From: an uncultured virus (IMG/VR IMGVR_UViG_3300048930_001385) | Taxonomy: Duplodnaviria > Heunggongvirae > Uroviricota > Caudoviricetes | Length of the DNA: 64,000 nt | IMG/VR virus record: IMGVR_UViG_3300048930_001385 | Strand: one strand, 5' to 3' | Shown here: piece by piece, positions 3,981 through 64,000 of the stretch | Layout of the letters: each line of letters opens with the position of its first letter | Position numbering within the stretch: the stretch's first letter is position 1 | The notes under the pieces: generated by a model | Seen by the model: the letters and a program-made list of their open reading frames with translations, nothing else | The model's database searches: none | Told to the model about the DNA's origin: nothing | Made by a program: the position numbers and the translations under genes

Positions 3981-4476
3981 TCAGCGAATTTAACGTCATC
4001 CGACTGCTTTTTCCACGACTTATCTTCAATGGGGTTCGTTACACTGGCGACAAGATGCTTGACCCTGGCTCCGTAGTCGGCCTCAAGCTCGGCAAACATC
4101 GCCTCACGCGCATCCTCCGCACTCATGCTCTGATCGCGTAGCGCCATCCACTCGTCCATGCAGTCTTCTACCACATCATGGAATGCGGCTCCGATAAGGA
4201 CGTCTTCATCGGTGACGCCATAACGGATCAGCCTCAGGACATTGCGTAGGCAATGCTCGATGTACGGTGTCTCCTCTCGTCCCTGGACAGGCTCCTTGCG
4301 TGTCTGACCATCATGAAGGACGGTGGCGAGATCACAGGCTCGTTCTAACTGGACCCAGTCTCCACTCTCGCGAATTGCTTCGCGTAGAGTGATCGCGTCC
4401 ATATGCTTGAGCTTAACCATACCTAGTGTATCGGAAGAGGGTGGGCAAACTTGAGGCCAAGTGCTAGGCTGAGGAT

Positions 4477-4908
4477 ATGCAGATTCTCCCGCCTCATACT
4501 CGAGCCGTATACCTGGGGCTGGAGAGATCACAGCGGGCTCGGGTCCTGAGTGAAGGAACAAGAGGACCTGTATATGAGGCTCTGGTGCAGGAGTTGCGAG
4601 AAGTGCCAGAAATCGGAGCCAAAAGAGCCAGGTGTCTTGCTGGAGAGGAGTGGGTGATGTGGCTCAGACACTGGCAGAACAATCTTTACTATATAGTCAA
4701 CGAACCTGATCATCTATTAACATATCGCCAGGAAACTTATGAGCACAACAAGCTGATGGCGGGTATATTCGGTGCTCTTGGCGGTGTCGTGCTATCAGGC
4801 TCTGGACCAGAGTCTCCTAAGGAGCGGTACATGTTCACGCCATCATCGATCAGGTCGGTGCGCACTTGGGTAGTGTCCTGGCTTGATGTCGATGTGAAGA
4901 AGGTCTAG
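4477..4908 (+). CDS. HhH-motif paralog family protein
   Basis: LREVPEIGAKRA motif and C-terminal IRSVRTW; TAGGCT-N6-ATG. Confidence 0.7.
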   Translation: MQILPPHTRAVYLGLERSQRARVLSEGTRGPVYEALVQELREVPEIGAKRARCLAGEEWVMWLRHWQNNLYYIVNEPDHLLTYRQETYEHNKLMAGIFGALGGVVLSGSGPESPKERYMFTPSSIRSVRTWVVSWLDVDVKKV

Positions 4909-4925
4909 AAAAATTACTCAGTTTA

Positions 4926-5207
4926 TTACTCAGCAGCCCGAAGCTCACTCGCATAGAAGTGCCGCCGCGAGCCGAGCGCCGATACCAGCTGCCCCGCTGC
5001 CTCGTCATCACTGTCAAGCCAAAAGTCGCTGAGAGAGGCCATGGTCTCATAGGGGTCAAAATCCACCCAAAAGCGCGGCTCATCCGTCATCGCACCCTCA
5101 ATGTCAACCACTCGTCCCACCAGTCCCTGCTGATAGCGCAGCTCGCTGGTAACGACTACATTCTGTCCGAGATGAAAAGGGAGGGTCATAGTCATGGTAT
5201 CGGTCAT
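4926..5207 (-). CDS. hypothetical protein (SH3/KOW-like)
   Basis: 93-aa ORF, F.LGQ.V.V...G.VG.VV pattern. Confidence 0.6.
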   Translation of the reverse strand: MTDTMTMTLPFHLGQNVVVTSELRYQQGLVGRVVDIEGAMTDEPRFWVDFDPYETMASLSDFWLDSDDEAAGQLVSALGSRRHFYASELRAAE

Positions 5208-5216
5208 TCTGTTATT

Positions 5217-5438
5217 TTAATGAAGAGTGAGGACATCGTCATGGACAAGAAGGCTGCGCTGCTCTCCATTACGGGCGCAGACGGGGTAGTTGCCGTTCGG
5301 CAACTCTACGGCCTGCCGAAACTCATCACCATCATAGAGCTCTACCTTGCTACGGTCATGGGCGTCACCGTCCAGGTAGGACTGAACACTGTCCATATTG
5401 CGTGCGCCCACTCCGTGTAGAATAACTTCGTAAATCAT
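5217..5438 (-). CDS. hypothetical protein
   Basis: 73-aa ORF with GGAG RBS, downstream of the promoter at 5489. Confidence 0.55.
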   Translation of the reverse strand: MIYEVILHGVGARNMDSVQSYLDGDAHDRSKVELYDGDEFRQAVELPNGNYPVCARNGEQRSLLVHDDVLTLH

Positions 5439-5529
5439 CAGGACTCCGTCTCGTTAAGGCTGCCACTCCGTTTGCGGCTCAAGGAGTATATCGGCGCCCA
5501 GCCGGAGATCCCGAGGCCAACCGAGTGGC

Positions 5530-5766
5530 CTAGACGTCCCGTTCGCTGCGGATCACCTCGGACCCCGCCCGCATAGCCTGCTCAAGATTAGGGTAGACCT
5601 CGCTCCCGCGCTTACCCGCAACCTTAAGATAGTATCCCTCGTCATTTCGCCAAATCCCGATGTAATGGTACTGCCGCTCCACGGGCTGCCAGTGTTCTCG
5701 GCCATACATGCCGACAAAGCTATCTTGCTGCCAGACCTGACCCTCATGTTCTCTCGTCGTCACCAT
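5530..5766 (-). CDS. hypothetical protein
   Basis: 78-aa ORF; stop codon overlaps a GGCC box. Confidence 0.6.
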   Translation of the reverse strand: MVTTREHEGQVWQQDSFVGMYGREHWQPVERQYHYIGIWRNDEGYYLKVAGKRGSEVYPNLEQAMRAGSEVIRSERDV

Positions 5767-7437: not shown

Positions 7438-7778
7438 AGCCCTTCCTTCCATACTGGTGGGGCCGTGAATGGGCCGTTTGCGGCTCCACACGCGCAGCCA
7501 GCACAAATCGTCTGACAGTTAAGTGCTTGAACTTTCTCCTCAAGGCCTCCGTCAATAGTCAGCATCACCACTGACCGCTTCTTGTCTCGATTGACACTGC
7601 GCGCTCGCTGATCATGGAGGGCTGCGACGCTCCGTGGCGAGGAGCCGGTCGCCTCCATGAGCGCGATGGTTTTCGCAAGATTATCCTGACGAAGACGCTC
7701 AAGCTCTGAATTCGCCTGGGCGGAAGGGGCTGTGCTCAGGATCAGTGCACCAGTGATTGCGGGTAGCCACTTATTCAT
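7434..7778 (-). CDS. secreted hypothetical protein with Cys-rich C-terminus
   Basis: Signal-like N-terminus; CxxCxxCxC; ATG 8 nt after the CCGATA box. Confidence 0.6.
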   Translation of the reverse strand: MNKWLPAITGALILSTAPSAQANSELERLRQDNLAKTIALMEATGSSPRSVAALHDQRARSVNRDKKRSVVMLTIDGGLEEKVQALNCQTICAGCACGAANGPFTAPPVWKEGL

Positions 7779-7818
7779 ATTCAAGGTATCGGCAACAGAC
7801 TCAGTCTCTTGAGGCCAA

Positions 7819-7995: not shown

Positions 7996-8011
7996 CACTA
8001 TAGTTATCGTC

Positions 8012-8569
8012 CTATGAACGAGATTGCTTAAGGCCAATTGCTTGGCCAGTCTCTAACTCTTTTGCCCACCACTCACGCAGTGCTTTGATCTGCTTACGGC
8101 CAGCAGGACGCTCTGTTCTGTGACCATAATCTCGCCAACGTTCAGAAAGTCGCTGGATGATCTCTTCGGGGTACTGAATGATCGTCTCGGTAAACGTTAA
8201 TCCGTAGTGAGCGTTAGCAACCAGTGCATGGACAAGGTCCCAGGAATAGGCTGCACCGACTGAAGGCAGACTAGCTAATTTACTAGTTAAAATACCTCGG
8301 TAATAAGGATCGACAATACCCGTATAGCGAATGATTGCTGCATGAATATGGTAATAGTGATCACCATTGCTTACCCACAGGTCATTAGCCATTACAGAAT
8401 GGCTGGAAGGACTGGTATAACGGTCGTCAGGATGGCGCAGGCTATGTGGCAGGGCGAGGAAGAAAGGGCCCCGAATCCAATCATAGAGATCGTCCTCTGC
8501 CTCCCTGTCCGTCGGGCTACGGCGATGGAGAGAGGCGGGGTCGGCGAGAGGTGAATGGGAAATGTTCAC
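8012..8569 (-). CDS. HhH-motif paralog family protein
   Basis: LASLPSVGAAYSWDL ... IKALREWW; TATATT-N6-GTG. Confidence 0.75.
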   Translation of the reverse strand: MNISHSPLADPASLHRRSPTDREAEDDLYDWIRGPFFLALPHSLRHPDDRYTSPSSHSVMANDLWVSNGDHYYHIHAAIIRYTGIVDPYYRGILTSKLASLPSVGAAYSWDLVHALVANAHYGLTFTETIIQYPEEIIQRLSERWRDYGHRTERPAGRKQIKALREWWAKELETGQAIGLKQSRS

Positions 8570-9287: not shown

Positions 9288-9380
9288 TCTTGGCTCCTTG
9301 GTGGTACAACAGCTTCTATACACCCTATCGGCTAGGATTCCAGCGAGCCTTAGGCCAGTATGCTGGCCTTCTATCCAAAC

Positions 9381-9806: not shown

Positions 9807-9901
9807 GATGGATAGCCTTTCGGTTTGGCGTTCTCAGTACGGTATATCGTTCATTCCGGGTTAGTCATGAGGCCAAAATCGTGGCCGCCAAGCTCTCTGA
9901 T

Positions 9902-10174: not shown

Positions 10175-10253
10175 GGTTTCTCCTCAGCCTAAATTCGTAT
10201 CGGCGAAACAAGTCAGTCTTTCCAGGTCAATGTGATGGCCGCTAACAATATAT

Positions 10254-10285: not shown

Positions 10286-10602
10286 TTTAGTCATCCATGT
10301 GCCGTCTCGCGGGGACACATTCCAGGCCGCTGTGGATGACCTAATAGTTACTAAGGCCTAGTCGTCCTACACTCACCAACCGAGCGACTTAGAAGCTGCG
10401 ACAAAAGACCCTGGCTCGGCTTCCTTGAGCTCTGCGATACGCTCACCGATGCGCTGCATTTTACTGTTATCCACGCTACCCACCGGTGAGAATCGCCACC
10501 AGCTAAGTAGCTGCTGGATACCTGCGTTTTCGATCTCGGCCTCGGTCATACCCTATGTATCGGTAGAGGGCGGGTGTACTTGAGGCCAAGGATGCGGCCT
10601 AT

Positions 10603-11025: not shown

Positions 11026-11260
11026 GACATTCTCCTTGCTAGGTTACTGTTCTCAGTATCTATCGGCATCAACACTTGATAGGGGAGGACAATACGACGG
11101 CCTCTTTCCAATACCGATATAGAAATTCCCGGACTGCTAACCGAGTATCTGGCGCAGCATCGTCAGCCGCTGACGACACGATGACTGCACGGATCGTTCT
11201 CAAGCAAGGGCTCTGTATTTAAAATATTCTGGGTGTAGTCGACGCGCTCAGTTTAGCAGA

Positions 11261-11740
11261 CTAGAGAGCTTTCTGGTAATGATCAACCCTGACCCCGACC
11301 GTGGATTCGCGGTATCCGCCTCCCGACGGCATGAAACCGTGCTTGCGAACAAATCGCTGAGCAAGGGTGTTGGTGCGCCAGCAAGAGACTCGCATCGTCT
11401 CCAGCCCTAGCGCTCGTGCTTGTCGTTCTCTCCACGATTGGAGTAACGACCCTAGACCTTGTCCAGAGTCGAGCGTGTACATCCCTACACTCCCGCCGTC
11501 CGCTCGTGAACCGCGCTTGCGGAAGCCAGTGTAGCCGATGATCTTTCCATCCAGGATTGCAATCCAAAGATAGTAATCCTTGCGCCCAATACGATAGCGG
11601 AAATACTCTTCGCCAGCGGACTTATCAATCCAGGCACGGGCACCTTCACCGTAAGCTCGTTCTGCACTCACCCGCTTCAGAGCAGCAAGCTCTGCGATAT
11701 CATCGCGGTGTGCTGCGCGGATTGTAATGTCTTCTTCCAT
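11261..11740 (-). CDS. GNAT acetyltransferase
   Basis: IRAAHRDD start, GQGLGSLL acetyl-CoA motif, N..A.RF..KHGF; leaderless ATG. Confidence 0.85.
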   Translation of the reverse strand: MEEDITIRAAHRDDIAELAALKRVSAERAYGEGARAWIDKSAGEEYFRYRIGRKDYYLWIAILDGKIIGYTGFRKRGSRADGGSVGMYTLDSGQGLGSLLQSWRERQARALGLETMRVSCWRTNTLAQRFVRKHGFMPSGGGYRESTVGVRVDHYQKAL

Positions 11741-11793
11741 ATCACTGTTATCGGAGGAAAACACTGCTAGCCTGAGGCCAAGAATCTGGCCTG

Positions 11794-11994
11794 TTAGCTC
11801 TTGCGCAGGCGACAGCGGAACGACAAGGTCTCCTGGATTCGCATATACATGTCGGCATCGCCACCACTGAGCTCATCCAGAAGGCTGGGGCACTCACCCA
11901 TAACCAGAGAGAACAGATCGTCCAAGCACCCAGCGATGTTGTCACCCAAAGTATCCGACACCCAGGATTTCGCCGGTCTGTTATTGCTTGTCAT
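11794..11994 (-). CDS. hypothetical protein, paralog of 9902..10174
   Basis: LVMGECPSLLDELSGGDA; start uncertain. Confidence 0.6.
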   Translation of the reverse strand: MTSNNRPAKSWVSDTLGDNIAGCLDDLFSLVMGECPSLLDELSGGDADMYMRIQETLSFRCRLRKS

Positions 11995-12184
11995 CACTAT
12001 CGGTAAACCCGGCCCCATCCTTGAGGCCGAAGTGCTGGCCTCGCTGAGTTGCCAAATTGATGTATATTCCCCGCGTCCGACTTGAACGGACTGCCAACCA
12101 CCCACTCGCTTCTGTACTATCCACGAGGGCCTTATGGGACGGGGCAGAAAGTGACATCGCGTAGTACCACCATTCACTCCCCAG

Positions 12185-12426: not shown

Positions 12427-12536
12427 AATCTCGCCACGCGAAGCGACCAAGCCCCGGTATTGAGAAAGTTTACCTTACTGGTTATCTGTATCGGTTGCAA
12501 TGCCCGGAGCTTAAGGCCAAGCTCCGGGCCTATTTG

Positions 12537-12712: not shown

Positions 12713-12873
12713 CTGATCTATCGCTCATGACCACCACGGTCAGCGAAGATCAAAACCTCCGGGCAGTTTCAGCTCTTGCCCAGGAGCCTTACCTATCTTA
12801 TTCTCTTTGTTATACCGTATGTATCGGCACCAGCTAGGAGCGCTTGAGGCCAACCGTTTGGCCTCCTTCAAGA

Positions 12874-13200: not shown

Positions 13201-13282
13201 GCCGACCTTCCCTATAAGATGGATTGCTTACCTTGCTTATCGCCATAGGATGTACTGAGGTTGAGGACATTGTGTGGCCTCT

Positions 13283-13594
13283 CTAGGACTCAACTACCAT
13301 TACCTTGCGGTAATTCGTCAGCTGATCATTATCACTAAAGTAGCCGACCCCGCGCAGCCTCCCGGTATCATCAACTTTCATGAACCCGGTTGCATAGACA
13401 CGGTTAAGTAGCTCCACGTGCGCGTTCTCGAGAATGAAGCGGTGTTCACGATCCGGATGCTCAGGCAACACAATATGAAGTTCCGAGGAGTGGTCGTTAT
13501 CGAATCCAGTGTGCAGATCACCAACGCCCTCCATCAGAACGACTTGTTCCCTGCCCGGGGTCATTGTAATAATCTTGAAATTCTTTTTGCTCAT
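13283..13594 (-). CDS. hypothetical protein
   Basis: 103 aa; near-leaderless start after the promoter at ~13604. Confidence 0.65.
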   Translation of the reverse strand: MSKKNFKIITMTPGREQVVLMEGVGDLHTGFDNDHSSELHIVLPEHPDREHRFILENAHVELLNRVYATGFMKVDDTGRLRGVGYFSDNDQLTNYRKVMVVES

Positions 13595-13630
13595 ACAGTC
13601 CTTATCGTCTCCATAGCTGAGTAGTTGAGG

Positions 13631-13927
13631 TCAGCCCTCTTCATAATGCTCATTCAAGGCGACCAGTTCGTACACCATTGGAGGCATCATCCCTAGAGCC
13701 CCAATAGTCCAGTCACCGAGCACACGCCAGATAACTGTAGCCCCGTAAGCCAATCCACCACCACAGAAGAAAGCAAGGATCCAGAGCGTCTGCATGAGGG
13801 CGGTACTGATCCCTCGGTCATGAGCCATAACCGCACGGTGTAGGCGGGTCAGGTAGTAGAACGGCCCGATGAACAGCACTAACAGTGTGTGGTGGAGTCG
13901 GCTACTGGGCGGGTAATTATCAAGCAT
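13631..13927 (-). CDS. membrane protein
   Basis: Hydrophobic segments; AGGAG RBS. Confidence 0.6.
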   Translation of the reverse strand: MLDNYPPSSRLHHTLLVLFIGPFYYLTRLHRAVMAHDRGISTALMQTLWILAFFCGGGLAYGATVIWRVLGDWTIGALGMMPPMVYELVALNEHYEEG

Positions 13928-14464: not shown

Positions 14465-14695
14465 TTAACTGACTGTCTGAGTATTGTTCGTATCTACAGT
14501 GAGAAAAGATTCTACGACTGCGAGCTTCTGATGAACCTCAGCCCATGCAAGAGTTGTGTCCTTGACCAGATCGAAGTACTCCGGATTCTCCGTCCGGAGA
14601 GTTTTGAGCTTATCAACATACTGACTCTGTAGCGAGTCTAGTTCTCCCTTACGGGTGGTCAGCTGCTCGCGCTCGGTATCAGAGAGATAGCTCAT
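14465..14695 (-). CDS. small coiled-coil protein
   Basis: Leaderless ATG 8 nt after the GCCGATA box. Confidence 0.65.
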   Translation of the reverse strand: MSYLSDTEREQLTTRKGELDSLQSQYVDKLKTLRTENPEYFDLVKDTTLAWAEVHQKLAVVESFLTVDTNNTQTVS

Positions 14696-14723
14696 GGCTA
14701 GAGTATCGGCATCTCATCCTGAC

Positions 14724-15173
14724 TCATGAGGCCAACTCTTGGCCAACCCACCACTGCCTGAGCGCTTGCACCGCTTTCCTAGAGGGCTTTCGTGGTCTAG
14801 CTCTGTAGCCCCAGTGTGCGATGAGTATGTCCGGATGGTCGTGGATAAGTTCATTCGGAGTCCACCTGCAAGCGCGGAATGTGTCGCTAAGGTCTCGTGC
14901 CCACGCGTCTCCGATTCCAGGGATCTCTCTAAATTCTGCATATAAGTTAGGGCCGCAGGCGGCGTAGATCTCCCATCTCCACTCAAGCTCTGTCATTGGT
15001 TGGGCCGGTACGATCTCTCCAGTCTGATGAACATATCGCAGTCTGGTTGGTATCACCTTGAGCATGGCCTGGTAGCCGCCACGATGCCAATGCCAAACGA
15101 ATTTGCGTGGCATTTGTCGCTGGCACTCCCGGACCCACGTGTAAGCTTCCTGATATATCTCCTCGTCAGTCAT
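14724..15173 (-). CDS. HhH-motif paralog family protein
   Basis: FREIPGIGDAWARDL ... AVQALRQWW; ATGA coupling to the upstream gene. Confidence 0.8.
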   Translation of the reverse strand: MTDEEIYQEAYTWVRECQRQMPRKFVWHWHRGGYQAMLKVIPTRLRYVHQTGEIVPAQPMTELEWRWEIYAACGPNLYAEFREIPGIGDAWARDLSDTFRACRWTPNELIHDHPDILIAHWGYRARPRKPSRKAVQALRQWWVGQELAS

Positions 15174-17400: not shown

Positions 17401-17473
17401 TTGTTGAGATAAGTATCGGTTCAATCTGGCTTTTGCATTAGGCCAAAGAGTGGCCTTTTGGTGTGCTCTTACG

Positions 17474-17556: not shown

Positions 17557-17976
17557 CCAGCCTCGGGTGTTGATGCGGGCACTGTCCACGGCCTCAATCA
17601 CATCCGGACTCATGCTCTTACCCTGCTCGGGTGCACCCCATCCTGCCCGTAGCATCGTCAGCGACACAGCTTCTCCGTCCTTGGAAAGAACACTGCCATC
17701 GTACTTGACGACTTGGCCCTCGGGAATATGATTGCGAAGCCACTGAGTTGCTTCTGCCGCTCCGCAAGCAGTAGAGCTGTCGGTGTCAACGGGTGGAACG
17801 ATGCCGGCGATGGTGACGACGCCAGATCCAGAGAGTTCTACTGTGCGGGCGTCAATGACCCTGACAACTGTCTCCACCTCGGGCTGATCGTAACCAGCGC
17901 GCACCTGGGAGAAGCCAATTGCGGCGACCAGCACACAGGCGATAATGATAGTTGAATGAATGGCACGATTCTTCAT
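17539..17976 (-). CDS. Secreted thermonuclease (SNase)-family protein, possibly inactive
   Basis: Signal peptide; VVRVIDARTV, CGAAEAT.WL, MLRAGW, AR....GWW; lacks canonical DGDT. Confidence 0.7.
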   Translation of the reverse strand: MKNRAIHSTIIIACVLVAAIGFSQVRAGYDQPEVETVVRVIDARTVELSGSGVVTIAGIVPPVDTDSSTACGAAEATQWLRNHIPEGQVVKYDGSVLSKDGEAVSLTMLRAGWGAPEQGKSMSPDVIEAVDSARINTRGWWEQCG

Positions 17977-18032
17977 ACTGTAGTTATCGGTGAATAATCA
18001 GCCGCTCAGGAGGCCAATAACATGGCCGCGAA

Positions 18033-18175: not shown

Positions 18176-18332
18176 CAGTAGTAGACCTCACGCACCGCCT
18201 GAGCAGTCGTGGCTTGGCTGCAATGTCTACTCCGCCTCATCGTTGTCGGGGCTGCCCCGCTCGTCGCTGCATATCTATCGGCACCGCAGGGCGCTCTCTT
18301 GAGGCCAATAACATGGCCAGGATATATCCTGG

Positions 18333-18815: not shown

Positions 18816-18895
18816 GTCTACAACTCCTATTAAGCAATCTCTTAGTTTAATCTGTATCGGCAATAATAGATACTACCGAGAGGCCATCATCTGGC

Positions 18896-19177
18896 CTACA
18901 GTGGATCTCCGAAAGTGCTGAAGCGGACGGGGTGTTCGGCGGTGGCGCTCCAGCCAGTGATGATACCCCTGAAAACATTCATCCAGCCATCATCTTCGCC
19001 ACCATATCCGAGCTTGACTGAGTAAGTTTCCTCGTCCAATGGATACCCTGGCCTGCTCAGCGGCGGAGCCTCATCACCCTTACGGTAGGTCTCAAGAATA
19101 CGGGTTCCCCAGCACTCATTCCAAACCTTAGTCTGCCCCCGATGTCCGTCAAGGTCGTACTCTACGAATAGTCCCAT
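18896..19177 (-). CDS. hypothetical protein
   Basis: 93 aa; TAATG coupling. Confidence 0.6.
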   Translation of the reverse strand: MGLFVEYDLDGHRGQTKVWNECWGTRILETYRKGDEAPPLSRPGYPLDEETYSVKLGYGGEDDGWMNVFRGIITGWSATAEHPVRFSTFGDPL

Positions 19178-19804: not shown

Positions 19805-19897
19805 AGTATAAACCTCTCGTTATTACTAGTACAATCGGCTCTTGGAGTGATATCGGCTACTAGCGGGTTAAACAGTAGGCCAAAACCTGGCCCTAGC

Positions 19898-20757: not shown

Positions 20758-20834
20758 GGGTTCTGCTCTCCTACTTGGGATCTGTCTAGTTGGGTATCGG
20801 CGCACCATCATGCACCTGGAGGCCAATCTGTGGC

Positions 20835-21275
20835 CTATGCGCAGCGGAGGCTCGGCCCCTTGATTCCGCGCTGCTTTGCCCAGCGAGCCTCTTCACGAGC
20901 TTGATGACGACGGTGCAAGCTATAAGCGTCACTATACTCCTGCTCAACCCACTTCTCACGAAGCCATTCGATGACCGCCTCACCCGAGAGACCAAGAATC
21001 TCTTCCCGCCACTCGTTAGCGACAATAACGACCTGCAAATTAGGATAGGCGGCCCGACACCAGCGCACCTTCACCCTTTTATGAGCAGGATTACCAACCT
21101 CGATATAAAGCTCGTGTTCAGGAAGGTAAAAGTCCGGATTGAAGCCCGAGAGCTTGCCATTGGGATGATGGATCCGAAAGGTACGCGGCTCATAGTGAAA
21201 CCTCTCCCCCGCCCGCACAAGGGCAGCGGCCATCGCCTCTTCAGTCGGCGTCACGCATGTTCGGCTTGCTCCCAT
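20835..21275 (-). CDS. PD-(D/E)XK-like nuclease
   Basis: E...FHYEP...FNPDFYLP...YIEV. Confidence 0.65.
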   Translation of the reverse strand: MGASRTCVTPTEEAMAAALVRAGERFHYEPRTFRIHHPNGKLSGFNPDFYLPEHELYIEVGNPAHKRVKVRWCRAAYPNLQVVIVANEWREEILGLSGEAVIEWLREKWVEQEYSDAYSLHRRHQAREEARWAKQRGIKGPSLRCA

Positions 21276-21325
21276 ATAGTTCTCATCGGCTAGTGGATGG
21301 TAGAATCTGAGGCCAGGTGTGTGGC

Positions 21326-23327: not shown

Positions 23328-23366
23328 AATTATACCTCGGGGTAGGTTCTGCCCTATTTCTATCGG

Positions 23367-45454: not shown

Positions 45455-45484
45455 ATTTCCCTATCGTACGATAACGATAACGCT

Positions 45485-46007: not shown

Positions 46008-46229
46008 CGCCTCCTTACTTGTATTATCGGCCTGTGCTGCCCCAGCAAGAGGACAGCGACGTGGCCGGTTAGGGCCTAAGAATCGACGGGACGCTGAAAG
46101 AGTGCTCCACACTCGTGACCGAGTCAATAAGCTCAGTGGGCTCGGCGTCAATATCGCGAACCCACCTGATGCCGATTACCCCAATCGCTTGCAGCCTCAG
46201 ACCAGCCTCGTAAGGGGCCAATTCTAGTA

Positions 46230-46589: not shown

Positions 46590-46645
46590 CGTGTCTCCAA
46601 TCTTTGCTTACACTACTATTATCGGCACGCAGGAGAGAATGGTTG

Positions 46646-46746
46646 AGGACAGTGCGGTGGCCGCTTTGGGGCGGTCTCTGCACGATTAGGACAGTGCGGT
46701 GGCCGCTTTGGGGCGGATGCTGCACGATTAGGACAATGCAGGGGCC
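46646..46746. repeat. 42-bp tandem repeat triplicating the GGAC-N8-GGCC box
   Basis: AGGACAGTGCGGTGGCC at 46646 and 46688; AGGACAATGCAGGGGCC at 46730. Confidence 0.85.
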
Positions 46747-47234: not shown

Positions 47235-47498
47235 AATAATATTATAGCTTATCCGAGCACTATGCGAGTATTTGTGAGAACGTGATTTCCTTGACTGGTC
47301 TCTCCCCAATCCTGGCATACTCTGACAGGCCATTCCTCACAGGCGAGCTTGAGGCGAGCTTTTCATCGGCTGACGAGTCAACGAAGATACAATACTTATA
47401 TACAGCGGATACAATCGTAGTCATGGCGATACTATCGATATAGGGGTAGAGAACCTGAGGTCAGCGTTTGGCCTATGAATAACACGCATTTCGGGGAA

Positions 47499-48530: not shown

Positions 48531-48581
48531 TGTGGTGATACTATCGGTGTCACGTTGAAGCCCTTGAGGCCAGTATTTGGC

Positions 48582-48968
48582 CTAGTCTTCACCTAGTTGC
48601 CCACCCTCGCTTGCCCCGTGACAGAACGCTTCTCCGTAGGTTAGAAAGTTGTGTTCCCAGTGGTCGGTGCCGGGCCAGTAAATGTCAAACATGCCGTCAC
48701 TCTTGTGGATGATAAAATTGGGCCTTGCATCGGCATGATCAGTATTCTGAACCGTAACCAGGGCATCGAGGATCATTCGCTCGCGGTATTGCTGAGCGTT
48801 TGAGGACATGACTTCGATAACAGCCTCTAGCTGAATAGGGTCTACATCCAGCTTTTTCATCAAGTCCATGATCTCGTCTAGATTAAAATACACTGATACC
48901 ATACCATAGACATTCTCGCCATGATCAAGCTGCTTTGCAATTCTACCGCTCAAGGCTGACCCTTCCAC
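48582..48968 (-). CDS. hypothetical protein
   Basis: 128-aa ORF; stop overlaps a GGCC box. Confidence 0.55.
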   Translation of the reverse strand: MEGSALSGRIAKQLDHGENVYGMVSVYFNLDEIMDLMKKLDVDPIQLEAVIEVMSSNAQQYRERMILDALVTVQNTDHADARPNFIIHKSDGMFDIYWPGTDHWEHNFLTYGEAFCHGASEGGQLGED

Positions 48969-49235
48969 TGTTAACCATTATATCGCCCTGGGTGGTCTCT
49001 CCCCAATGCGTCCGAACGTATCCAGCCCAGTCTGCCCATGCCTCACGGAGGGTCTGGCGCTCATCGGCACTCGCAAGGACAACCCCGCGATACAACTCGC
49101 TTCCGCTCTCGTCAGAGACTCGATAAACTTGAACAGTTGTCTACTGGGATTGCATAGGGTGATTATCGTCATCCGAGCCGCGACGCTTAAGGACAAAGGG
49201 ATGGCCGTCCCAGTTGCACGCGATAGCATAAAGGT

Positions 49236-50811: not shown

Positions 50812-50889
50812 GTGTCCTCAATTCTAGTTTGGGTCAGGGTAGACCATATGGGTTTTATCGGTGTTGTAGGCTAGTTGCTATAGGCCAAC

Positions 50890-51642
50890 TTATGGCCGCC
50901 AAGCCTCACAGTAAAATGGACCGTCCCAATCCTGTACCCATGAAGGAGCGCCTGGATCATAACGCAGCTCGTCAGAAAGATCAGTGGAGAGCTGGGTTGC
51001 TTCTTCGATAGCGCTTTCAATAGTATGGGTGTAATTTTTGACAGCGTATTCAACAAGCTTTTTAAGATACATCGGCGTCACATTCCACTGGGAAGGGCCC
51101 TCGTCATCAACAATCACAGCATAGTCGTTGACCCAAGCCTGAGGTACAATTCGGGCGACGTAGCCAGCATAGAGCGCCTCGTCCTCGTCTGTCAAGGGGA
51201 CAGAGCTGGGTACAATCTCATTCTGCAAACGGGTGACGATATCCCGGACCTCTTCGGAAGAAAGCTTGCCAGCCTTGTCAGGGTGTTCCCACGGGGGTCG
51301 GGTTGGCACCAGGTCATTCTTGTAACGCGGGATAATATGAGTATGTACATGGGCCAGAGTGTTCCCCAGTGTGGCGTAATTGACACGAGCAGCGCCCATC
51401 ACCTTGCGCACCGCACCACCGGCATGGATAGTCTCACGCATGAACGCCTCGGCGATATAGCTCGGTACCTCGTCGAGGTGCTCGTAATGACCCTTAATCA
51501 TTAGGATGCATCGACCTGGGAAACGGTCATCGTTATACAAACCAAGAACCGAGTGCTCATATTCAGCGACGGGAATCCAAAGATCAAAGCCGCAGTCCTC
51601 GCATTGCAGGAGGGTGGTCTCGCCGGGGATATTAGTTTTCAT
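50890..51642 (-). CDS. HIT-family hydrolase with C-terminal extension
   Basis: PGRC.L..K.H, NYATLGN..AHVHTHIIPRY. Confidence 0.85.
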   Translation of the reverse strand: MKTNIPGETTLLQCEDCGFDLWIPVAEYEHSVLGLYNDDRFPGRCILMIKGHYEHLDEVPSYIAEAFMRETIHAGGAVRKVMGAARVNYATLGNTLAHVHTHIIPRYKNDLVPTRPPWEHPDKAGKLSSEEVRDIVTRLQNEIVPSSVPLTDEDEALYAGYVARIVPQAWVNDYAVIVDDEGPSQWNVTPMYLKKLVEYAVKNYTHTIESAIEEATQLSTDLSDELRYDPGAPSWVQDWDGPFYCEAWRP

Positions 51643-51937: not shown

Positions 51938-52015
51938 TATGACCTCGGTTAGGTTTTGTGGCGCTACTACTTGTATCGGCATTCTTGAGCAAAGCTGTAG
52001 GCCAGGGCCATGGCC

Positions 52016-56263: not shown

Positions 56264-56349
56264 GATTTACCTCTTCAGTTGCTAGTGTGTGAGAGTGTTG
56301 TCGGCACAGAGCAAGTCTTGTCTGAGGCCGACTCTTTGGCCGTGCCAAG

Positions 56350-56432: not shown

Positions 56433-56477
56433 TTGTATCTGTTGTATCGGCCTAGCTTGATTTTACTGAAGGCCGAC

Positions 56478-58076
56478 CTACTGGCCGCTTACACCAGCCT
56501 CCTGCTCACGAAGCTGCTTTGTAAGAGCTTCGAGTCGCTGGAGCCGCTTCTGATCCTCAGCCGCATCGGCACGCTCCTCTGCAAGCAACGCCTCAAGCTG
56601 CTCTGCAATAGTCGCGTTCTCGCCAAGATCCTCTACGCTATCAGGAACACTCTTCTCCGGCAGCTTGCCGCTCTCTAGCGACTCCAGGAGCTTGTCTGTA
56701 GCTTCAGGGTCGGTGTCATGGTTGAACACGGCGACAACACGGTTCTTGTCGGCGTCTACAATCACGCTCTTAGTAACCTCGGTTCGGGTGGAAGGAATGA
56801 TAGAGATAAGATAATGGAGGCGGTTATCATAGAAGACCGGCCTCGGCTCTGCTGCCTTGAACTTGCCGCGACCCGAGCCAAAGACGATGCCCTCGTAGTT
56901 ACGACCAGCGGCAGCATCAAGCGCTCGGCGCGGACCAGCGAAACTCTGGCTTTTGTTTACGCGCCAGATTTCAGTCTTACCATCTACCGCGTCGGTCAAG
57001 AAGACTGCCTTAACAGCCCCTTCCTTACTCGCTGGCTCTGCCACAGATACCCACTTAAGACTGTCACCAAACGATAGCAAGTACGGTTGCGAGTTATTCT
57101 CATCGGGATCAGGGATCTGAGTCACATCCTGCTTAGCGAACCACTTATTAAGAATACCGCCGTTGTAAGCATAAGCATCGTGGATCTGGCGAGCAAGCTT
57201 CTCAGGGAAGAGTCTCCCACTCTCGGCAAGAATACTATTCTTTGCTGCCTGCTCGGGTGTCAAGTCTTCAATTCTGCCGTCATGATGGACAAGAACCACA
57301 CCGGCAAAGTACGGGCTCTTCTTGAGGAAGCCCTTATACTTCACATAAGGAGCGGCAAACAGAACCTCGTTCTCACCAACTGGGATTGCGAAGATTTCGG
57401 TCACGTTCGCAAGGTAGTGCTTCTTATATACTCGCCAGCGGATACCGTCCGAGTATCGCATGGAAGGGCCAACATCAAACTTTTGCTCGTAGTTTACAGT
57501 GTCACCATTTACCTCAGAGGCAGTGATACTGACTGCCCCTGCCGTGTTCTGGGTGATGGAGCGCCACATGCCGTTAGGGGCCTGCTCATAAGTCCAGTGG
57601 AGCTGCCCATCACGCTCACGAACAATATGACTATTGCGCAGGGTCTCAGTTGAGGAGGAGAAATTGTTATTAACGATCTGATCAGCGACTTCCTTCGGCA
57701 TCACCCGAACCACGCCACCCTCGGGCAGAGTTGTCACAGCCTTGTAATCGCTAGTAGCGTATAGAGCCTCGGCATTCCAAGCATGCTGGAACACCATTCC
57801 TGTGAGCGCAACCAAGACACCGATGATGCCAAATAGCCAAGCAGAAACAGTGACCGCAAAGTTCTCTGCAATATTAAAGAGCGCTGCGAGAAAGGCTACC
57901 CCTACCATTCCCAACCCGATAGTCAACACCGGGTGGAGGTAGAAGAACATTACCGTCCCGTGGAGGACGCCAAGCGGCCGGATTGCGTAGAGTCCGAGCG
58001 TGATAGCAGCCAAGATGCCGACAATGACGGCGATAGTGATAGCTACTGCGGTGATTCTTGCCTTGTTCTTGTCCAT
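56478..58076 (-). CDS. Membrane protein with a large extracytoplasmic domain
   Basis: 532 aa; 3 N-terminal TM segments; C-terminal coiled coil; leaderless start. Confidence 0.8.
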   Translation of the reverse strand: MDKNKARITAVAITIAVIVGILAAITLGLYAIRPLGVLHGTVMFFYLHPVLTIGLGMVGVAFLAALFNIAENFAVTVSAWLFGIIGVLVALTGMVFQHAWNAEALYATSDYKAVTTLPEGGVVRVMPKEVADQIVNNNFSSSTETLRNSHIVRERDGQLHWTYEQAPNGMWRSITQNTAGAVSITASEVNGDTVNYEQKFDVGPSMRYSDGIRWRVYKKHYLANVTEIFAIPVGENEVLFAAPYVKYKGFLKKSPYFAGVVLVHHDGRIEDLTPEQAAKNSILAESGRLFPEKLARQIHDAYAYNGGILNKWFAKQDVTQIPDPDENNSQPYLLSFGDSLKWVSVAEPASKEGAVKAVFLTDAVDGKTEIWRVNKSQSFAGPRRALDAAAGRNYEGIVFGSGRGKFKAAEPRPVFYDNRLHYLISIIPSTRTEVTKSVIVDADKNRVVAVFNHDTDPEATDKLLESLESGKLPEKSVPDSVEDLGENATIAEQLEALLAEERADAAEDQKRLQRLEALTKQLREQEAGVSGQ

Positions 58077-58134
58077 GATCAGGGTATCGGCACTTTCTCT
58101 TTAGGGTAGAGGCCAAAAGGATGGCCCTGAGCGA

Positions 58135-58545
58135 TCAGAGTTGAGCGTTCTCGTAATAGGGGAGGACCTGGAGCTGCTCCATTGCTTCATAGATCTTGCG
58201 CATATTGTGGAGAGAACCGCCGCCGAGCTTGTCATTCATCACCTTTTCTGCACGAATAACTATAAACACACTGCCGCCGTTCTCTTCATTAACAAACTCG
58301 TCATAGATACTTGCAAGGTATTCTTGCGCGCGTTCTTGTTCTGAGTGCATTGCGCGCTGGAGGCGAATGAGCATATTCATCAGGTGTTCGTCGCCCTGAT
58401 AAGGTAGATCATCACGATCTTGGGCTTGGGCTACAATACCGTCAGCGTACTTACGATGATTCTGAACTTCACTGCGTAGCGCTACCAGCCTGTTCATGAG
58501 GCTGTCATCCCGACTAATTTCCTGATGTACCCACTCGGTTTCCAT
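58135..58545 (-). CDS. hypothetical protein
   Basis: Leaderless ATG 8 nt after GCCGATA. Confidence 0.7.
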   Translation of the reverse strand: METEWVHQEISRDDSLMNRLVALRSEVQNHRKYADGIVAQAQDRDDLPYQGDEHLMNMLIRLQRAMHSEQERAQEYLASIYDEFVNEENGGSVFIVIRAEKVMNDKLGGGSLHNMRKIYEAMEQLQVLPYYENAQL

Positions 58546-58666
58546 AAGAAAGGTATCGGCACAATCAGCAACGAGCTTGAGGACAGTGTGGTGGCCGCCC
58601 TGCGGGCGCTACACGAGTAGGGCAGCGTGGCGACCTCTGACCATTGATCACTCAGTCTATTTATCC

Positions 58667-59519: not shown

Positions 59520-59578
59520 ACCCTCGGTGTATCGGCAAGCTCAGAAGAATACTTGAGGCCAGGTGCTGGCCCGTGAGG

Positions 59579-60095: not shown

Positions 60096-60180
60096 GGTCT
60101 ACCTCTTTCGGTGGTTTGTTAAATCCTGCTCTTTGTATCGTCTTGAATGCTAGGTGTCTAAAGGCCAAAAGAGTGGCCTC

Positions 60181-60809: not shown

Positions 60810-60990
60810 AGCTACTCCTCACATGGATATAAGGGCTTTATCGGCAGGGTTTTCTTGAACATTAGGCCAAGTTCTTGGCCTAAGACCTACGACTCAGGGA
60901 AAGCTCACGGAAATTATGTTATGCCCTGAATCACATATCTACCAACCGCCCTTGAAGTTCTTAGCCAATTAGAGACCTAGGAATCTTTTA

Positions 60991-62263: not shown

Positions 62264-62671
62264 CTTGGCATCAGACAAGTAAACCGTGTAACCGATTCGC
62301 TCCCAGATATGAGGAAAGCTCTTGCGCGAAGCAAGAATAATTTCATCGTAGTTCATAACCGCTGGGTAGGCAAAGATAATATTAGATTGCGGGCGCTTGT
62401 CTGCACTACGGTCTTCCCAGGACACTGCAGTCCAGCCACCGCGCTGATGAAGGGCAGCCTCCCCTTCTCGCGTGGACGGGTTAAGGGCCGCATCCCACCT
62501 TGGCCACGGAAAACCCTCTGGTGGATAACGAAGCCGCATGTGCATCGTTTCGTCAAACCAGTAGTGGCCGAGTTCGCTGGCAGAGCGGCAGCCGAAGTAG
62601 TAACCTTTCGGCGTCAAGTCTGGTCGGTCTTCGAACGCCGAGAGGCCATCGTCAGCGCTGCGAAAGCACAA
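62258..62671 (-). CDS. hypothetical protein (start uncertain)
   Basis: YYFGC....GHYW...D..L.P...EG.A.LH...GWT.VSW.DRS.D.RP.SN. Confidence 0.6.
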   Translation of the reverse strand: MCFRSADDGLSAFEDRPDLTPKGYYFGCRSASELGHYWFDETMHMRLRYPPEGFPWPRWDAALNPSTREGEAALHQRGGWTAVSWEDRSADKRPQSNIIFAYPAVMNYDEIILASRKSFPHIWERIGYTVYLSDAKS

Positions 62672-62813
62672 CCGACACCAGCAATCAGCAGGAGGTCAGG
62701 AAGGAACAGGGTCATAACGGTGCCTGCGAGAGCGCCACCGAGGAATGTAGTTGGAGTAGTCATACTTGAGTTATCGGCGCAGGGAGAGGATCCTTGAGGA
62801 CACCTTGCTGGCC

Positions 62814-63101
62814 TTAAGGGAGAAGTTCCAATTCTGAATCATCCAAAAACCAGTCCCACTGACATCCAGTCTTTCCATCAATGTCCCACGGACGGTGCTC
62901 CATACGGGTGGCCTCACTCGGGTCAGAAACATCGTAGCTGATCATGACAGGGTTATAGAGTAGGCGGGTGTATTCAATGTAGGGAATTAAAGGGGAGCGC
63001 CGGTCGCGGGTAGCCCGGGCCACGTCAATGACTACCCCTTCATTACCCGTTGCAACAACACGGACCTTATCGCCGATCTTGAATTGTGTATCACGCGTCA
63101 T
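62814..63101 (-). CDS. hypothetical SH3/KOW-like protein
   Basis: FKIGDKVRV..TG.EGVV; AAGGAG RBS. Confidence 0.65.
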   Translation of the reverse strand: MTRDTQFKIGDKVRVVATGNEGVVIDVARATRDRRSPLIPYIEYTRLLYNPVMISYDVSDPSEATRMEHRPWDIDGKTGCQWDWFLDDSELELLP

Positions 63102-63115
63102 AATAGTTTTCTCCT

Positions 63116-63832
63116 TTAACCTATATAATGCTCGACGGCCCTTAGTCTTTCGCCATGCTCATCGTAGTAAATTTCATACTCACCATGCTCATCGTAGTAA
63201 ATTTCATACTCAATCTGACCATTGCGGTAGCGTTCAACGAGTACGGCGCCATCCGGATTAAAACGGATACCGTGCTGATACCATTCACTACGCTCCCATT
63301 CGCCGCAGGGAAGCGGCCTGCTTGTTCGCGCCGGACCATCTTCACGATGAAGAACACCATGTGTATACCATTCCTGGCTGGTAACTGGAGCGCCTTCTAC
63401 GTTGTATTGCTGAGCAAGGAAATAATCATACTTGATCCACGCGGGGCCATCCTCGCGGTGAAGGAATCCATGCTTACAGTACTTTTCCTCAATGACATTA
63501 CCTACCGGCGTTACAGTAATCCAGGCTGGTCCATCCTCGCGGTGCAGCTCGCCATTCTGAAGGTACTCGATAGTAAAGAGGCCGTTGGTTCCCCAAGACT
63601 GACGAAATACTCGTGCTGGACCGTTTTCGCGGTGCAACACACCCATCGTCCGCCACTCTGAGTAGTAAGCCTTGGGCACGCCTCCCCTGCCACCTTCTCC
63701 GCGCAAGAGGGCCGGCCCGTTCGTGCTGTGCAACACGTTGAGAACGGGGTCAATGACAGAGCGCTCGCCTCCCCCTGCGGGCCAATCGCTCGGGAACGGG
63801 TCGATGTAGTCAGCGACGTTGAGTCTATTCAT
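63116..63832 (-). CDS. MORN-like LHREDGPA repeat protein
   Basis: Five LH..(D/N)GPA units; leaderless ATG; 30-bp tandem duplication at 63151-63211. Confidence 0.8.
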   Translation of the reverse strand: MNRLNVADYIDPFPSDWPAGGGERSVIDPVLNVLHSTNGPALLRGEGGRGGVPKAYYSEWRTMGVLHRENGPARVFRQSWGTNGLFTIEYLQNGELHREDGPAWITVTPVGNVIEEKYCKHGFLHREDGPAWIKYDYFLAQQYNVEGAPVTSQEWYTHGVLHREDGPARTSRPLPCGEWERSEWYQHGIRFNPDGAVLVERYRNGQIEYEIYYDEHGEYEIYYDEHGERLRAVEHYIG

Positions 63833-64000
63833 ATAGGGTGTATCGGCAATCATAAGTGTAGGGTTAGGCCATTGCGTTAGCAGCAAGAAGCTGTTCTGCG
63901 CTTTCCAGCGCCCCGGCAAGGGCCAGGTCAATAACTGCCTGTACAGCTCGGACCCGTCCCTGACTCGAGGGAATCTCCACACGGTAGAAGGTCGCATCGT

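Follow-up and report, generated by a model that had tools for sequence, protein, structure and literature searches.

A GGCC dyad joined to a sigma-28-like promoter motif recurs along one strand of an apparently phage-like element

We provide evidence that a stretch of 64,000 nucleotides (nt) from an uncultured virus (IMG/VR record IMGVR_UViG_3300048930_001385, Caudoviricetes), analysed at its full length and called the window below, carries one promoter-like unit in dozens of copies. The composite motif, [GGCCA-N5/6-T]GGCC-T(C/A)A(A/T)G-N14/15-tGCCGATA(A/C), is present 70 times on the gene-bearing minus strand, in the same orientation as the genes, in ~62 kb, which amounts to one copy per 0.9 kb (Table 1). 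Sequence statistics strongly support that these units are promoters, with transcription starts that can be predicted. As to how they would work, we give roughly even chances to the reading that they are promoters of a large phage-like element, used by an alternative sigma factor of the sigma-28 kind together with a protein that binds the GGCC dyad. A first-pass annotation of the same DNA had estimated about 65-70 co-oriented copies at about one per kb; both figures agree well with ours, and the range needs to be extended by one copy at 1627-1668.

Copies were collected with a loose regular expression for the proximal GGCC arm and the -10 box (G[GTA]CCT-N17-21-CGA[TCG][AG]). This expression matches 73 times on the minus strand against 4 times on the plus strand, and order-1 Markov random sequences yield 7.2 matches on average and 15 at most. 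In 70 of the 73 matches, GGCCT and CGATA are separated by exactly 20 nt (33 copies) or 21 nt (37 copies); 3-7 of these 70, for example those at 34370 and 45453, may be chance matches. Since the expression fixes some of the letters, each box was checked independently in a non-circular way. GCCGATA has G.CCT exactly 20 or 21 nt upstream of CGATA at 35 of 39 minus-strand sites and at none of the 5 plus-strand sites, and TTGGCCT is followed by CGAYA at the same distances in 33 of 42 cases on the minus strand (0 of 15 on the plus strand). CCGATA as such occurs 61 times on the minus strand versus 18 times on the plus strand, and GGCC-N7/8-GGCC is found 47 times in the window versus 2.3 times expected from shuffles (largest shuffle 6). 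On the minus strand almost all of these palindromes lead into T(C/A)A(A/T)G, a stretch of variable sequence and (G)CCGATA. Restriction avoidance was considered as a cause of the GGCC pattern and rejected: GGCC occurs 352 times (~308 expected), 239 of them outside the motifs.

Over the 70 copies the full consensus reads GGCCA-N5/6-tTGGCC-T-c-A-a-G-N14/15-t-G-C-CGATA-(A/C)-N7-(T)-A/G. The -10 element is made up of T (40 copies), G (50) and C (55), then CGATA (set by the pattern) and finally A (23) or C (27). For the -35 box the counts are T (again set by the pattern), C 45 or A 14, A 42, A 41 or T 15, and G 53, with a weak preference for T 2-3 positions beyond the box. The best-conserved part of the whole promoter is the proximal GGCC arm. 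The copy at 10558-10599, singled out as an example in the first-pass annotation, reads as it was given there.

The published consensus of flagellar sigma-28 promoters is TAAAGTTT-n11-GCCGATAA (PMC2859248), and is also given as TAAA at -35 with GCCGATAA at -10, a specificity common to actinobacterial WhiG (PMC8325347). Here tGCCGATA(A/C) matches GCCGATAA at 7 of 8 positions, and the spacing TCAA-N15/16-GCCGATA agrees with the ~15 nt between TAAA and GCCGATAA. The previously proposed likeness to FliA/SigD/WhiG promoters is consequently good for the -10 element and the spacing, and partial for the -35 box (TCAAG versus TAAAG). By this likeness we propose a sigma-28-type factor as the reader: bacterial RNA polymerase with an alternative factor of the FliA/SigD/WhiG kind would contact T(C/A)A(A/T)G at about -34 to -30 and tGCCGATA at about -16 to -9, the factor being either the host's own or encoded elsewhere on the element. 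A housekeeping promoter using TTGGCC as its -35 box was also considered and was rejected on geometry, with 22-23 nt separating it from the hexamer at -12 to -7.

Transcription would begin at a purine 9 nt after CGATA. The ninth nucleotide is a purine in 66 of the 70 copies (A 52, G 14), and it is kept in 43 of the 46 copies that have no start codon at or next to this position. Given that the purine is conserved even where no start codon is present, it is the signature of a fixed start point and not of a start codon. In 22 of 70 copies (chance ~1) an ATG is located exactly at the ninth nucleotide and opens an open reading frame (ORF) of 30 codons or more, and in two further copies it is offset by one base; all 16 ATG positions listed in the first-pass annotation lie exactly 8 nt after CGATA and each opens an ORF. 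In these units, about a third of the total, the start purine would be the A of the ATG and the mRNA would be leaderless, so that the earlier description of leaderless cassettes is accurate for only about a third of the promoters. In most of the other copies 8-40 nt of leader precede the start codon and include a GGAG-type ribosome site. Among the 42 leadered copies (ORF within 200 nt), 32 contain a GGAG, GAGG, AGGA or AAGG word 4-16 nt before the start codon; the figure is 1 of 22 for leaderless copies, and 15% of random 13-mers contain such a word.

Some units would drive tRNAs and tRNA-like RNAs. The predicted start lies 5 nt from the beginning of tRNA-Lys and 4 nt from that of tRNA-Leu (Table 1), and other copies precede tRNA-like units without ORFs, in line with the earlier report of copies at tRNAs and non-coding RNAs. 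Four copies without a following ORF head units of 180-300 nt, several with tRNA-like T-arm hairpins and two called tRNA by Rfam. Several such hairpins are seen in the non-coding, putatively promoter-driven units at 12180-12813, 18028-18267 and 27200-27365 (minus strand). In the two tRNAs called only by Rfam (94 and 82 nt) the anticodon region is oversized, perhaps by an insertion or an intron, and a weak tRNA-Sec-like match is located at 27218-27350 (minus strand).

Not every gene has a copy of its own. Greedy calling yields 82 minus-strand ORFs of 60 amino acids (aa) or more; 44 come first after a copy and 38 do not, which shows that short operons exist, and many genes lie in such operons with no copy to themselves. 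Units are tightly packed: out of 67 cases, the upstream ORF ends inside the promoter or the palindrome in 27, and in another 19 its stop codon falls 20-45 nt before the palindrome. A scan for canonical terminators showed no enrichment (21 in 4001-24000 versus 13.8 +/- 4.4 in shuffles).

As to the palindrome itself, a distal GGCC is exact in 58 of the 70 copies (N8 in 44, N7 in 14); in 4 others it deviates by one mismatch, and 8 copies lack it. Whether N7 or N8 is used does not depend on the 20- or 21-nt spacer. TTGGCCT is kept in the 12 copies that lack an exact distal GGCC. The proximal arm reads GTCC in 12 copies and GACC in 5, in each case without a compensating change in the distal arm, and pairing beyond the 5-base-pair (bp) arms is at the level of chance (inner positions, observed versus expected: 10 vs 8.2, 9 vs 11.0 and 13 vs 11.2). 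If the conserved purine is taken as +1, the dyad extends from about -50 to about -35; for the N8 form this places the centre at -42.5 with a 20-nt spacer or at -43.5 with a 21-nt one. A 42-nt tandem repeat at 46646-46729 adds two extra GGCCACCGCACTGTCC palindromes, each adjoining a small CCGC..GCGG hairpin, and a similar single repeat unit is located at 58580-58621.

It might be argued that these palindromes act as stem-loops, in RNA or DNA, that end the upstream gene (as terminator, attenuator or 3'-end stabiliser) and are fused to the next promoter, with the composite also serving as a recombination substrate for the shuffling of small genes. We give this explanation a limited chance. The order of stem-loop, promoter, ribosome site and start codon before small variable genes is that of the promoter-early stem-loops (PeSLs) of T4-like phages (PMC4122927), and in many units the upstream ORF stops inside the palindrome or a short way ahead of it (of 67, 14 at -53 to -35 and 19 at -80 to -54), which leaves no room for any other terminator; the lack of enrichment of canonical terminators points the same way. 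Folded as RNA, 24-nt segments taken around the palindrome reach a median of -8.8 kcal/mol (random segments, -2.2 kcal/mol), and a short metagenome contig (L008, see below) has three copies in which promoter and leader are the same and the palindrome centres differ, as would fit recombination at the arms. However, the arms measure only 5 bp with nothing but chance pairing beyond them, and the uncompensated central mismatch (GTCC/GACC) in 17 of 70 copies reduces the fold to ~-4 kcal/mol (14 of 70 copies are weaker than -3). There is no U-run as in an intrinsic terminator (the 8 nt that follow the proximal arm contain 2.5 T on average), 12 of 70 promoters have the proximal arm without an exact distal arm, and a terminator does not need the exact register between proximal arm and -10 element. 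Moreover, the spacers differ, so the promoters are not copies of one another and identical stretches are short for homologous recombination.

Taken together, the missing covariation of the arms, the uncompensated changes (17 of 70) and the fixed proximal register favour protein recognition of DNA over an obligatory hairpin. The proximal arm, locked in register with the -10 element (35 of 39 GCCGATA sites), behaves as part of the promoter recognition sequence, and the distal arm appears to be a frequent but dispensable partner. Most likely the dyad is recognised as DNA by a sequence-specific protein that works with the polymerase: GGCCA-N5/6-TGGCC, with its proximal arm abutting the -35 box, would be bound by a specificity factor or by a co-activator of the class II type.

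A single DNA-binding candidate was noticed in the window, a 95-aa protein (44581-44868, minus strand) with a CopG-like ribbon-helix-helix N-terminus, which slightly modifies the earlier statement that neither sigma factor nor regulator can be recognised: no sigma domain was found, and this one candidate was. Its match to Pfam RHH_5 is weak (E 0.009), 25 of its 30 named atlas neighbours contain RHH_1 (score 0.90), and the gene sits behind a TATACT-N6-ATG promoter. Nothing links this protein to the palindrome, and it is a candidate only.

The dyad may instead form an operator array, through which a global repressor encoded by the element silences dozens to hundreds of promoters (in lysogeny, a carrier state or a temporal switch), like Cluster A stoperators or Cluster O palindromes. 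Many-copy, orientation-linked repressor sites across phage genomes are known (PMC9283540), a 17-bp dyad in 34 copies is on record (PMC4351075), and the dyad overlaps the -35 side, a usual place for repression. The three tandem palindrome copies before the promoter at 46611-46746 would also fit, as would the presence of the ribbon-helix-helix protein under a sigma-70-like promoter. Nevertheless we regard a repressor as rather unlikely: its site does not need a single-base register with the -10 element (35 of 39 GCCGATA sites), the high conservation of the proximal arm suits a positive recognition element better than an operator, and the ribbon-helix-helix protein has no link to the dyad sequence.

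Besides the composite promoters the window contains a second, sigma-70-like leaderless class, TATAnT-N6-ATG (a TATAAT-like hexamer 6 nt before ATG), so that the single promoter class described in the first-pass annotation is incomplete. It serves 6 of the 9 plus-strand protein genes inspected (183, 2336, 41183, 42314, 54506 and 61103; the hexamer is missing at 1346, 40534 and 62309) and also precedes tRNA-Met at 54957 (plus strand). On the minus strand it is found at genes 44868, 39978, 34592, 26879, 16625 and 8569, which have no composite motif. A TTGNNN box is sometimes seen 17-18 nt upstream. The presence of housekeeping-type promoters beside the composite type argues that the latter is read by a different holoenzyme, and the TATAAT-like class may mark a separate temporal or host-dependent programme.

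Outside the window the composite is rare. A pattern scan of metagenomes gave 116 single matches among the 119 stretches listed, which are probably due to chance; the exceptions are L008, L094 and possibly L059. Six single matches from a first IMG/VR pattern scan were likewise taken as chance. L008 (three copies) and L094 (two copies) are short metagenome contigs. On the minus strand of the 1.8-kb L008 (1-1822), three small-gene cassettes have an identical promoter and 45-nt leader with a different palindrome centre in each, and two further promoters have only the CTAGATGCCGATAC part in common. In addition, a 42-kb siphovirus-like IMG/VR contig (G001) has three copies of GGCCA-N6-TGGCCT(T/A)(G/A)AC..tGCCGATA; the best named match of its portal protein is in a Thermoleophilaceae genome (35% identity), and no sigma domain was found in the 61 ORFs scanned (the contig is estimated to be 49% complete). 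L008, L094 and G001 show no DNA or protein similarity to the window. Out of 88 IMG/VR matches to both GGCC arms plus GCCGATA, 4 have GGCCA..TGGCC flanks, 3 of which are in G001, and the five loci with relatives of the window's RNA ligase in IMG/VR include one loose regex match (L223). Although these sequences are few and short, the occurrence of the same composite in unrelated elements suggests a shared trans-acting factor, possibly the host's.

These relatives also bear on a convergent origin, in which TTGGCCT..tGCCGATA is read as a whole by a divergent sigma factor or RNA polymerase encoded by the element, the dyad being part of the recognition sequence. GGCC(T) is indeed far better conserved than the TAAA-like box, very large phages often carry their own transcription machinery (PMC7598289, PMC7824862), and the composite is very rare, with three of the four flanked matches coming from a single contig. 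On the other hand, a bipartite motif with a strict 20/21-nt spacer of variable sequence is typical of recognition by the sigma-70 family, 7 of 8 sigma-28 -10 positions match, and the composite is also found in the siphovirus-like contig, with no sigma domain among its scanned ORFs, and in two short unrelated contigs, which argues for a shared and possibly host-derived factor. We consequently assign convergence only a small chance.

For the window itself, no megablast match to 30000-50000 was obtained in 50,697 phage records, its last 50 nt do not occur in IMG/VR, and a 532-aa protein (56478-58076) has no tblastn match in phage records and no IMG/VR relative, either by single sequence or by a 19-sequence alignment. 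One DNA run (0.07 of words) on 12000-31999 returned a few identical 151-nt contigs, with no variation for footprinting. For each of two window proteins the sole contig on record measures 552,685 bp, and we take this contig to be the window's own.

By its gene content, the window looks like an accessory region of a very large phage-like element. It encodes an RNA repair set (RlaP, HAD_SAK_2, cREC_REC, an RNA ligase and a PNK-type phosphatase). Further proteins have NUDIX, HD or HNH endonuclease domains, GmrSD_C, TelA or pentapeptide repeats, and there are also a TnpB-like gene and several tRNAs. Since no capsid or terminase gene is present in the window, its phage nature is something we infer. 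Its G+C content is 52-55%, and 44% in the first 4 kb. In this first part (1-4000), a pentapeptide-repeat gene and a TnpB/OrfB_IS605-like gene (545 aa) each follow a leaderless promoter of the TATAAT type; the composite promoter at 1627-1668 lies on the strand opposite to them. The RNA-repair-type genes (HAD_SAK_2, RlaP, the PNK-type phosphatase, the RNA ligase phrog_14301 and cREC_REC) are scattered over the minus strand at 23855-24466, 26007-26879, 33838-34305, 35367-35930 and 46794-47333; together with the element's tRNAs they suggest a defence of the tRNA pool against host anticodon nucleases. A 343-aa MORN-repeat protein (47499-48530, minus strand) is built from 90-nt repeats.

As for the host, several weak but consistent indications point to Actinomycetota (Thermoleophilia). 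The best named homologues of TelA are all from Actinomycetota (36-39% identity), and those of the 532-aa protein come from Solirubrobacterales genomes (~36-41% identity). Leaderless genes are concentrated in Actinobacteria and Deinococcus-Thermus (PMC3160421), and homologues of WhiG occur widely across Actinomycetota (PMC12871210). A 371-aa protein with 12-nt tandem repeats (53239-54354, minus strand) has an LPXTG-like C-terminus, a hint of a Gram-positive host. The TnpB-like protein gave one weak Bacteroidetes match against species genomes, which is of no use for host assignment.

A number of observations weigh against a sigma-28-type holoenzyme assisted by a dyad-binding protein. The -35 box is TCAAG and not TAAAG, at 0.4-0.9 bits per position, and the much stronger signal is the adjacent GGCC, which is absent from sigma-28 promoters. 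A Pfam scan of 118 window ORFs yielded no Sigma70-family domain; nothing sigma-like was obtained for the unknown proteins of the window with Pfam at E values up to 5 or with NCBIfam, nor in a PDB sequence search of the 95-aa protein or an atlas search of a 185-aa protein. In E. coli, CRP failed to activate a sigma-28 promoter from a class II position (PMC2859248), so that for a class-II-like activator on such a promoter we have seen no precedent. The two half-sites do not stand at a constant distance (N8 in 44 copies, N7 in 14), which is unusual for a rigid dimer, and an RNA hairpin of ~-8.7 kcal/mol is possible in 53 of 70 palindromes, where it may have a structural role. Finally, the host assignment depends on identities of 35-41% to proteins from metagenome-assembled genomes.

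A bolder version of the proposed mechanism, which we consider improbable at present, sees the composite as a shared 'dialect' of phages infecting one Thermoleophilia-like actinobacterial lineage, read by a host sigma factor of the WhiG/FliA type and a host dyad-binding factor. In that case most gene expression of the ~550-kb element, and of unrelated small phages, would be coupled to the motility or developmental state of the host (controlled by cyclic di-GMP), leaving a minority of genes on housekeeping promoters. If true, a phage life cycle would be gated genome-wide by an alternative host sigma factor.

Table 1. Copies of the composite motif in the window. Distal arm, exact GGCC at N7 or N8; spacing, nt from the proximal arm GGCCT to CGATA; leader, nt to the start codon. 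Promoters and all +1 positions are predicted.
Feature	Position	Strand	Distal arm	Proximal arm	Spacing (nt)	-10 variant	Downstream
Composite promoter	1627..1668	-	none exact	GGCC	21		ATG at +1, ORF 98 aa
Composite promoter	4420..4460	-	none exact	GGCC	20		ATG at +1, ORF 150 aa (HD domain)
Composite promoter	5480..5530	-	N8	GGCC	20		leader 42, ATG, ORF 73 aa
Composite promoter	7778..7818	-	none exact	GGCC	20		ATG at +1, ORF 114 aa
Composite promoter	7996..8047	-	N8	GGCC	21		ATG one base after +1, ORF 58 aa
Composite promoter	9317..9368	-	N8	GGCC	21		leader 8, TTG, ORF 51 aa
Composite promoter	9836..9886	-	N8	GGCC	20		leader 30, ATG, ORF 141 aa
Composite promoter	10189..10240	-	N8	GACC	21		leader 15, ATG, ORF 90 aa
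Composite promoter (first-pass example)	10549..10599	-	N8	GGCC	20		ATG at +1, ORF 58 aa
Composite promoter	11052..11102	-	N8	GTCC	20		leader 22, ATG, ORF 52 aa
Composite promoter	11740..11791	-	N8	GGCC	21		ATG at +1, ORF 159 aa (GNAT)
Composite promoter	11989..12040	-	N8	GGCC	21		leader 28, GTG, ORF 55 aa
Composite promoter	12480..12530	-	N8	GGCC	20		no ORF; tRNA-like genes 12426-12333, 12267-12186 (Rfam)
Composite promoter	12813..12863	-	N8	GGCC	20		283-nt unit, tRNA-like T-arm hairpins; nearest ORF 76 nt away
Composite promoter	13229..13279	-	N7	GTCC	21		leader 29, ATG, ORF 108 aa
Composite promoter	13594..13634	-	none exact	GACC	20		ATG at +1, ORF 103 aa
Composite promoter	14695..14744	-	N7	GGCC	20		ATG at +1, ORF 76 aa
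Composite promoter	17405..17455	-	N7	GGCC	21		+1 at 17405, tRNA-Lys from 17400
Composite promoter	17976..18027	-	N8	GGCC	21		ATG at +1, ORF 145 aa
Composite promoter	18267..18318	-	N8	GGCC	21		no ORF; 240-nt unit, two tRNA-like T-arm hairpins
Composite promoter	18846..18896	-	N7	GGCC	21		leader 31, ATG, ORF 160 aa
Composite promoter	19842..19892	-	N7	GGCC	21		leader 38, GTG, ORF 112 aa
Composite promoter	20786..20835	-	N7	GGCC	20		leader 29, ATG, ORF 163 aa
Composite promoter	21275..21326	-	N8	GGCC	21	CGATG	ATG at +1, ORF 146 aa
Composite promoter	21676..21727	-	N8	GTCC	21		ATG at +1, ORF 116 aa
Composite promoter	21908..21958	-	N8	GGCC	20		no ORF of at least 40 aa within 200 nt; 181-nt unit
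Composite promoter	22581..22621	-	none exact	GGCC	20		leader 12, ATG, ORF 66 aa
Composite promoter	23352..23402	-	N7	GGCC	21		leader 25, ATG, ORF 234 aa
Composite promoter	23795..23845	-	N8	GTCC	20		ATG at +1, ORF 142 aa (NUDIX)
Composite promoter	24466..24516	-	N8	GTCC	20		ATG at +1, ORF 203 aa (HAD_SAK_2)
Composite promoter	24848..24889	-	none exact	GGCC	21		leader 20, ATG, ORF 85 aa
Composite promoter	25128..25179	-	N8	GTCC	21		leader 22, ATG, ORF 77 aa
Composite promoter	25969..26018	-	N7	GGCC	20		ATG at +1, ORF 262 aa (GmrSD_C + Excalibur)
Composite promoter	26786..26837	-	N8	GGCC	21		ATG at +1, ORF 259 aa (RlaP)
Composite promoter	28118..28169	-	N8	GACC	21		leader 25, ATG, ORF 184 aa
Composite promoter	28686..28737	-	N8	GGCC	21		leader 139, GTG, ORF 99 aa
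Composite promoter	28952..29002	-	N8	GGCC	20		no ORF of at least 40 aa within 200 nt; 215-nt unit
Composite promoter	29409..29460	-	N8	GGCC	21	CGACA	leader 25, ATG, ORF 115 aa
Composite promoter	30156..30206	-	N8	GGCC	20		leader 33, ATG, ORF 147 aa
Composite promoter	31688..31729	-	none exact	GGCC	21		leader 22, ATG, ORF 483 aa
Composite promoter	32896..32947	-	N8	GGCC	21		leader 27, ATG, ORF 379 aa (TelA)
Composite promoter	33307..33358	-	N8	GGCC	21		ATG at +1, ORF 111 aa
Composite promoter	34305..34345	-	none exact	GGCC	20		ATG at +1, ORF 155 aa (HAD/PNK phosphatase)
Doubtful copy	34370..34411	-	absent			GGCGATA	fits regex only, may be chance match
Composite promoter	35276..35316	-	none exact	GGCC	20		leader 48, ATG, ORF 194 aa
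Composite promoter	36031..36082	-	N8	GGCC	21		leader 101, ATG, ORF 187 aa (RNA ligase phrog_14301)
Composite promoter	36399..36450	-	N8	GGCC	21	CGAGA	317-nt unit, short ORFs only
Composite promoter	38110..38161	-	N8	GGCC	21		ATG at +1, ORF 226 aa (pentapeptide repeats)
Composite promoter	38600..38651	-	N8	GTCC	21		leader 16, ATG, ORF 45 aa
Composite promoter	40502..40552	-	N7	GGCC	21		leader 17, ATG, ORF 65 aa
Composite promoter	42231..42280	-	N7	GGCC	20		leader 19, ATG, ORF 75 aa
Composite promoter	43979..44029	-	N8	GGCC	20		leader 11, ATG, ORF 205 aa
Composite promoter	44573..44623	-	N8	GGCC	20		leader 26, ATG, ORF 172 aa (HNH/endonuclease VII-like)
Doubtful copy	45453..45493	-	absent	GACC		ACGATA	fits regex only, may be chance match
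Composite promoter	46016..46066	-	N8	GTCC	20		leader 9, ATG, ORF 67 aa
Composite promoter (46611-46662) + two extra upstream tandem palindromes	46611..46746	-					42-nt repeat at 46646-46729
Composite promoter	47424..47473	-	N7	GACC	20		ATG at +1, ORF 54 aa
Composite promoter	48533..48582	-	N7	GGCC	20		leader 3, ATG, ORF 343 aa (MORN repeats)
Composite promoter	49155..49206	-	N8	GTCC	21		leader 60, TTG, ORF 50 aa
Composite promoter	50847..50897	-	N7	GGCC	21		leader 36, ATG, ORF 363 aa (polysaccharide deacetylase)
Composite promoter	51965..52015	-	N8	GGCC	20		leader 28, ATG, ORF 101 aa
Composite promoter	56290..56341	-	N8	GGCC	21	CGACA	leader 27, ATG, ORF 224 aa
Composite promoter	56436..56486	-	N8	GGCC	20		+1 at 56436, tRNA-Leu from 56432
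Composite promoter	58076..58126	-	N8	GGCC	20		ATG at +1, ORF 532 aa
Composite promoter	58545..58596	-	N8	GTCC	21		ATG at +1, ORF 136 aa
Composite promoter	59521..59571	-	N7	GGCC	21		leader 2, ATG, ORF 126 aa
Composite promoter	60127..60178	-	N8	GGCC	21		leader 32, ATG, ORF 68 aa
Composite promoter	60830..60880	-	N8	GGCC	20		leader 21, ATG, ORF 116 aa
Composite promoter	62763..62813	-	N8	GTCC	20		ATG at +1, ORF 49 aa
Composite promoter	63832..63872	-	none exact	GGCC	20		ATG at +1, ORF 238 aa

If the promoters work as proposed, most of a half-megabase element would be transcribed gene by gene from one type of non-housekeeping promoter. This would provide a testable regulatory code for an uncultivated giant phage-like element, with a predicted start for ~70 genes in the window, and a map of the two promoter classes could separate temporal or host-state programmes. 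It would also mean that sigma-28-type recognition is combined with an abutting dyad site, the arrangement that failed for CRP in E. coli (PMC2859248). GGCCA-N6-TGGCCT..GCCGATA could also serve as a sequence tag to find other elements of the same host group in metagenomes.

Literature searches aimed at the composite motif, which covered open-access papers and preprints, found no description of it. With sigma-28 promoters it has in common the -10 element (7 of 8 positions) and a fitting spacing; T(C/A)AAG partly resembles TAAAG, and the predicted start lies 8-9 nt after the -10 box. It differs in the invariant GGCC that abuts the -35 box and the second GGCC arm 7-8 nt upstream, in the third of copies that are leaderless, and in its density (one copy per 0.9 kb on a mobile element against a few dozen per chromosome). 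Large sigma-28-type regulons are on record, for example in the attack phase of Bdellovibrio (PMC3627812). Class II activator promoters of the CRP/FNR type (site at -41.5) offer a partial parallel to the 5-N6-5 dyad that overlaps or abuts the -35 region, but here the centre lies 1-2 bp further upstream and the half-site spacing is 5 or 6. The Cluster O 17-bp palindrome and the Cluster A stoperators are, like the dyad, short and direction-biased motifs resembling protein sites that occur by the dozens, mostly at gene boundaries, and they do so in Actinomycetota phages (PMC4351075, PMC9283540); these are not fused to a promoter at a fixed distance, however, and a stoperator is an asymmetric 13-mer to which a monomer binds.

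The PeSLs of T4-like phages come near in overall layout, since a palindrome, promoter, ribosome site and start codon are repeated on one strand before small accessory genes (PMC4122927). Their promoters are sigma-70-like (variants of TTGACA-N17-TATAAT) and their stems are read as terminators, whereas the promoter here is sigma-28-like, with GCCGATA and not TATAAT as its -10 element. Directly upstream of it stands a 5-bp dyad in 58 of 70 copies, with a central mismatch in 17 of 70; its arms keep a fixed register with the promoter, mismatches are frequent and no U-run follows. Summarizing, the closest known systems are sigma-28 promoters by sequence and PeSL cassettes by anatomy, and the window appears to combine both in a new way, together with frequent leaderless starts.

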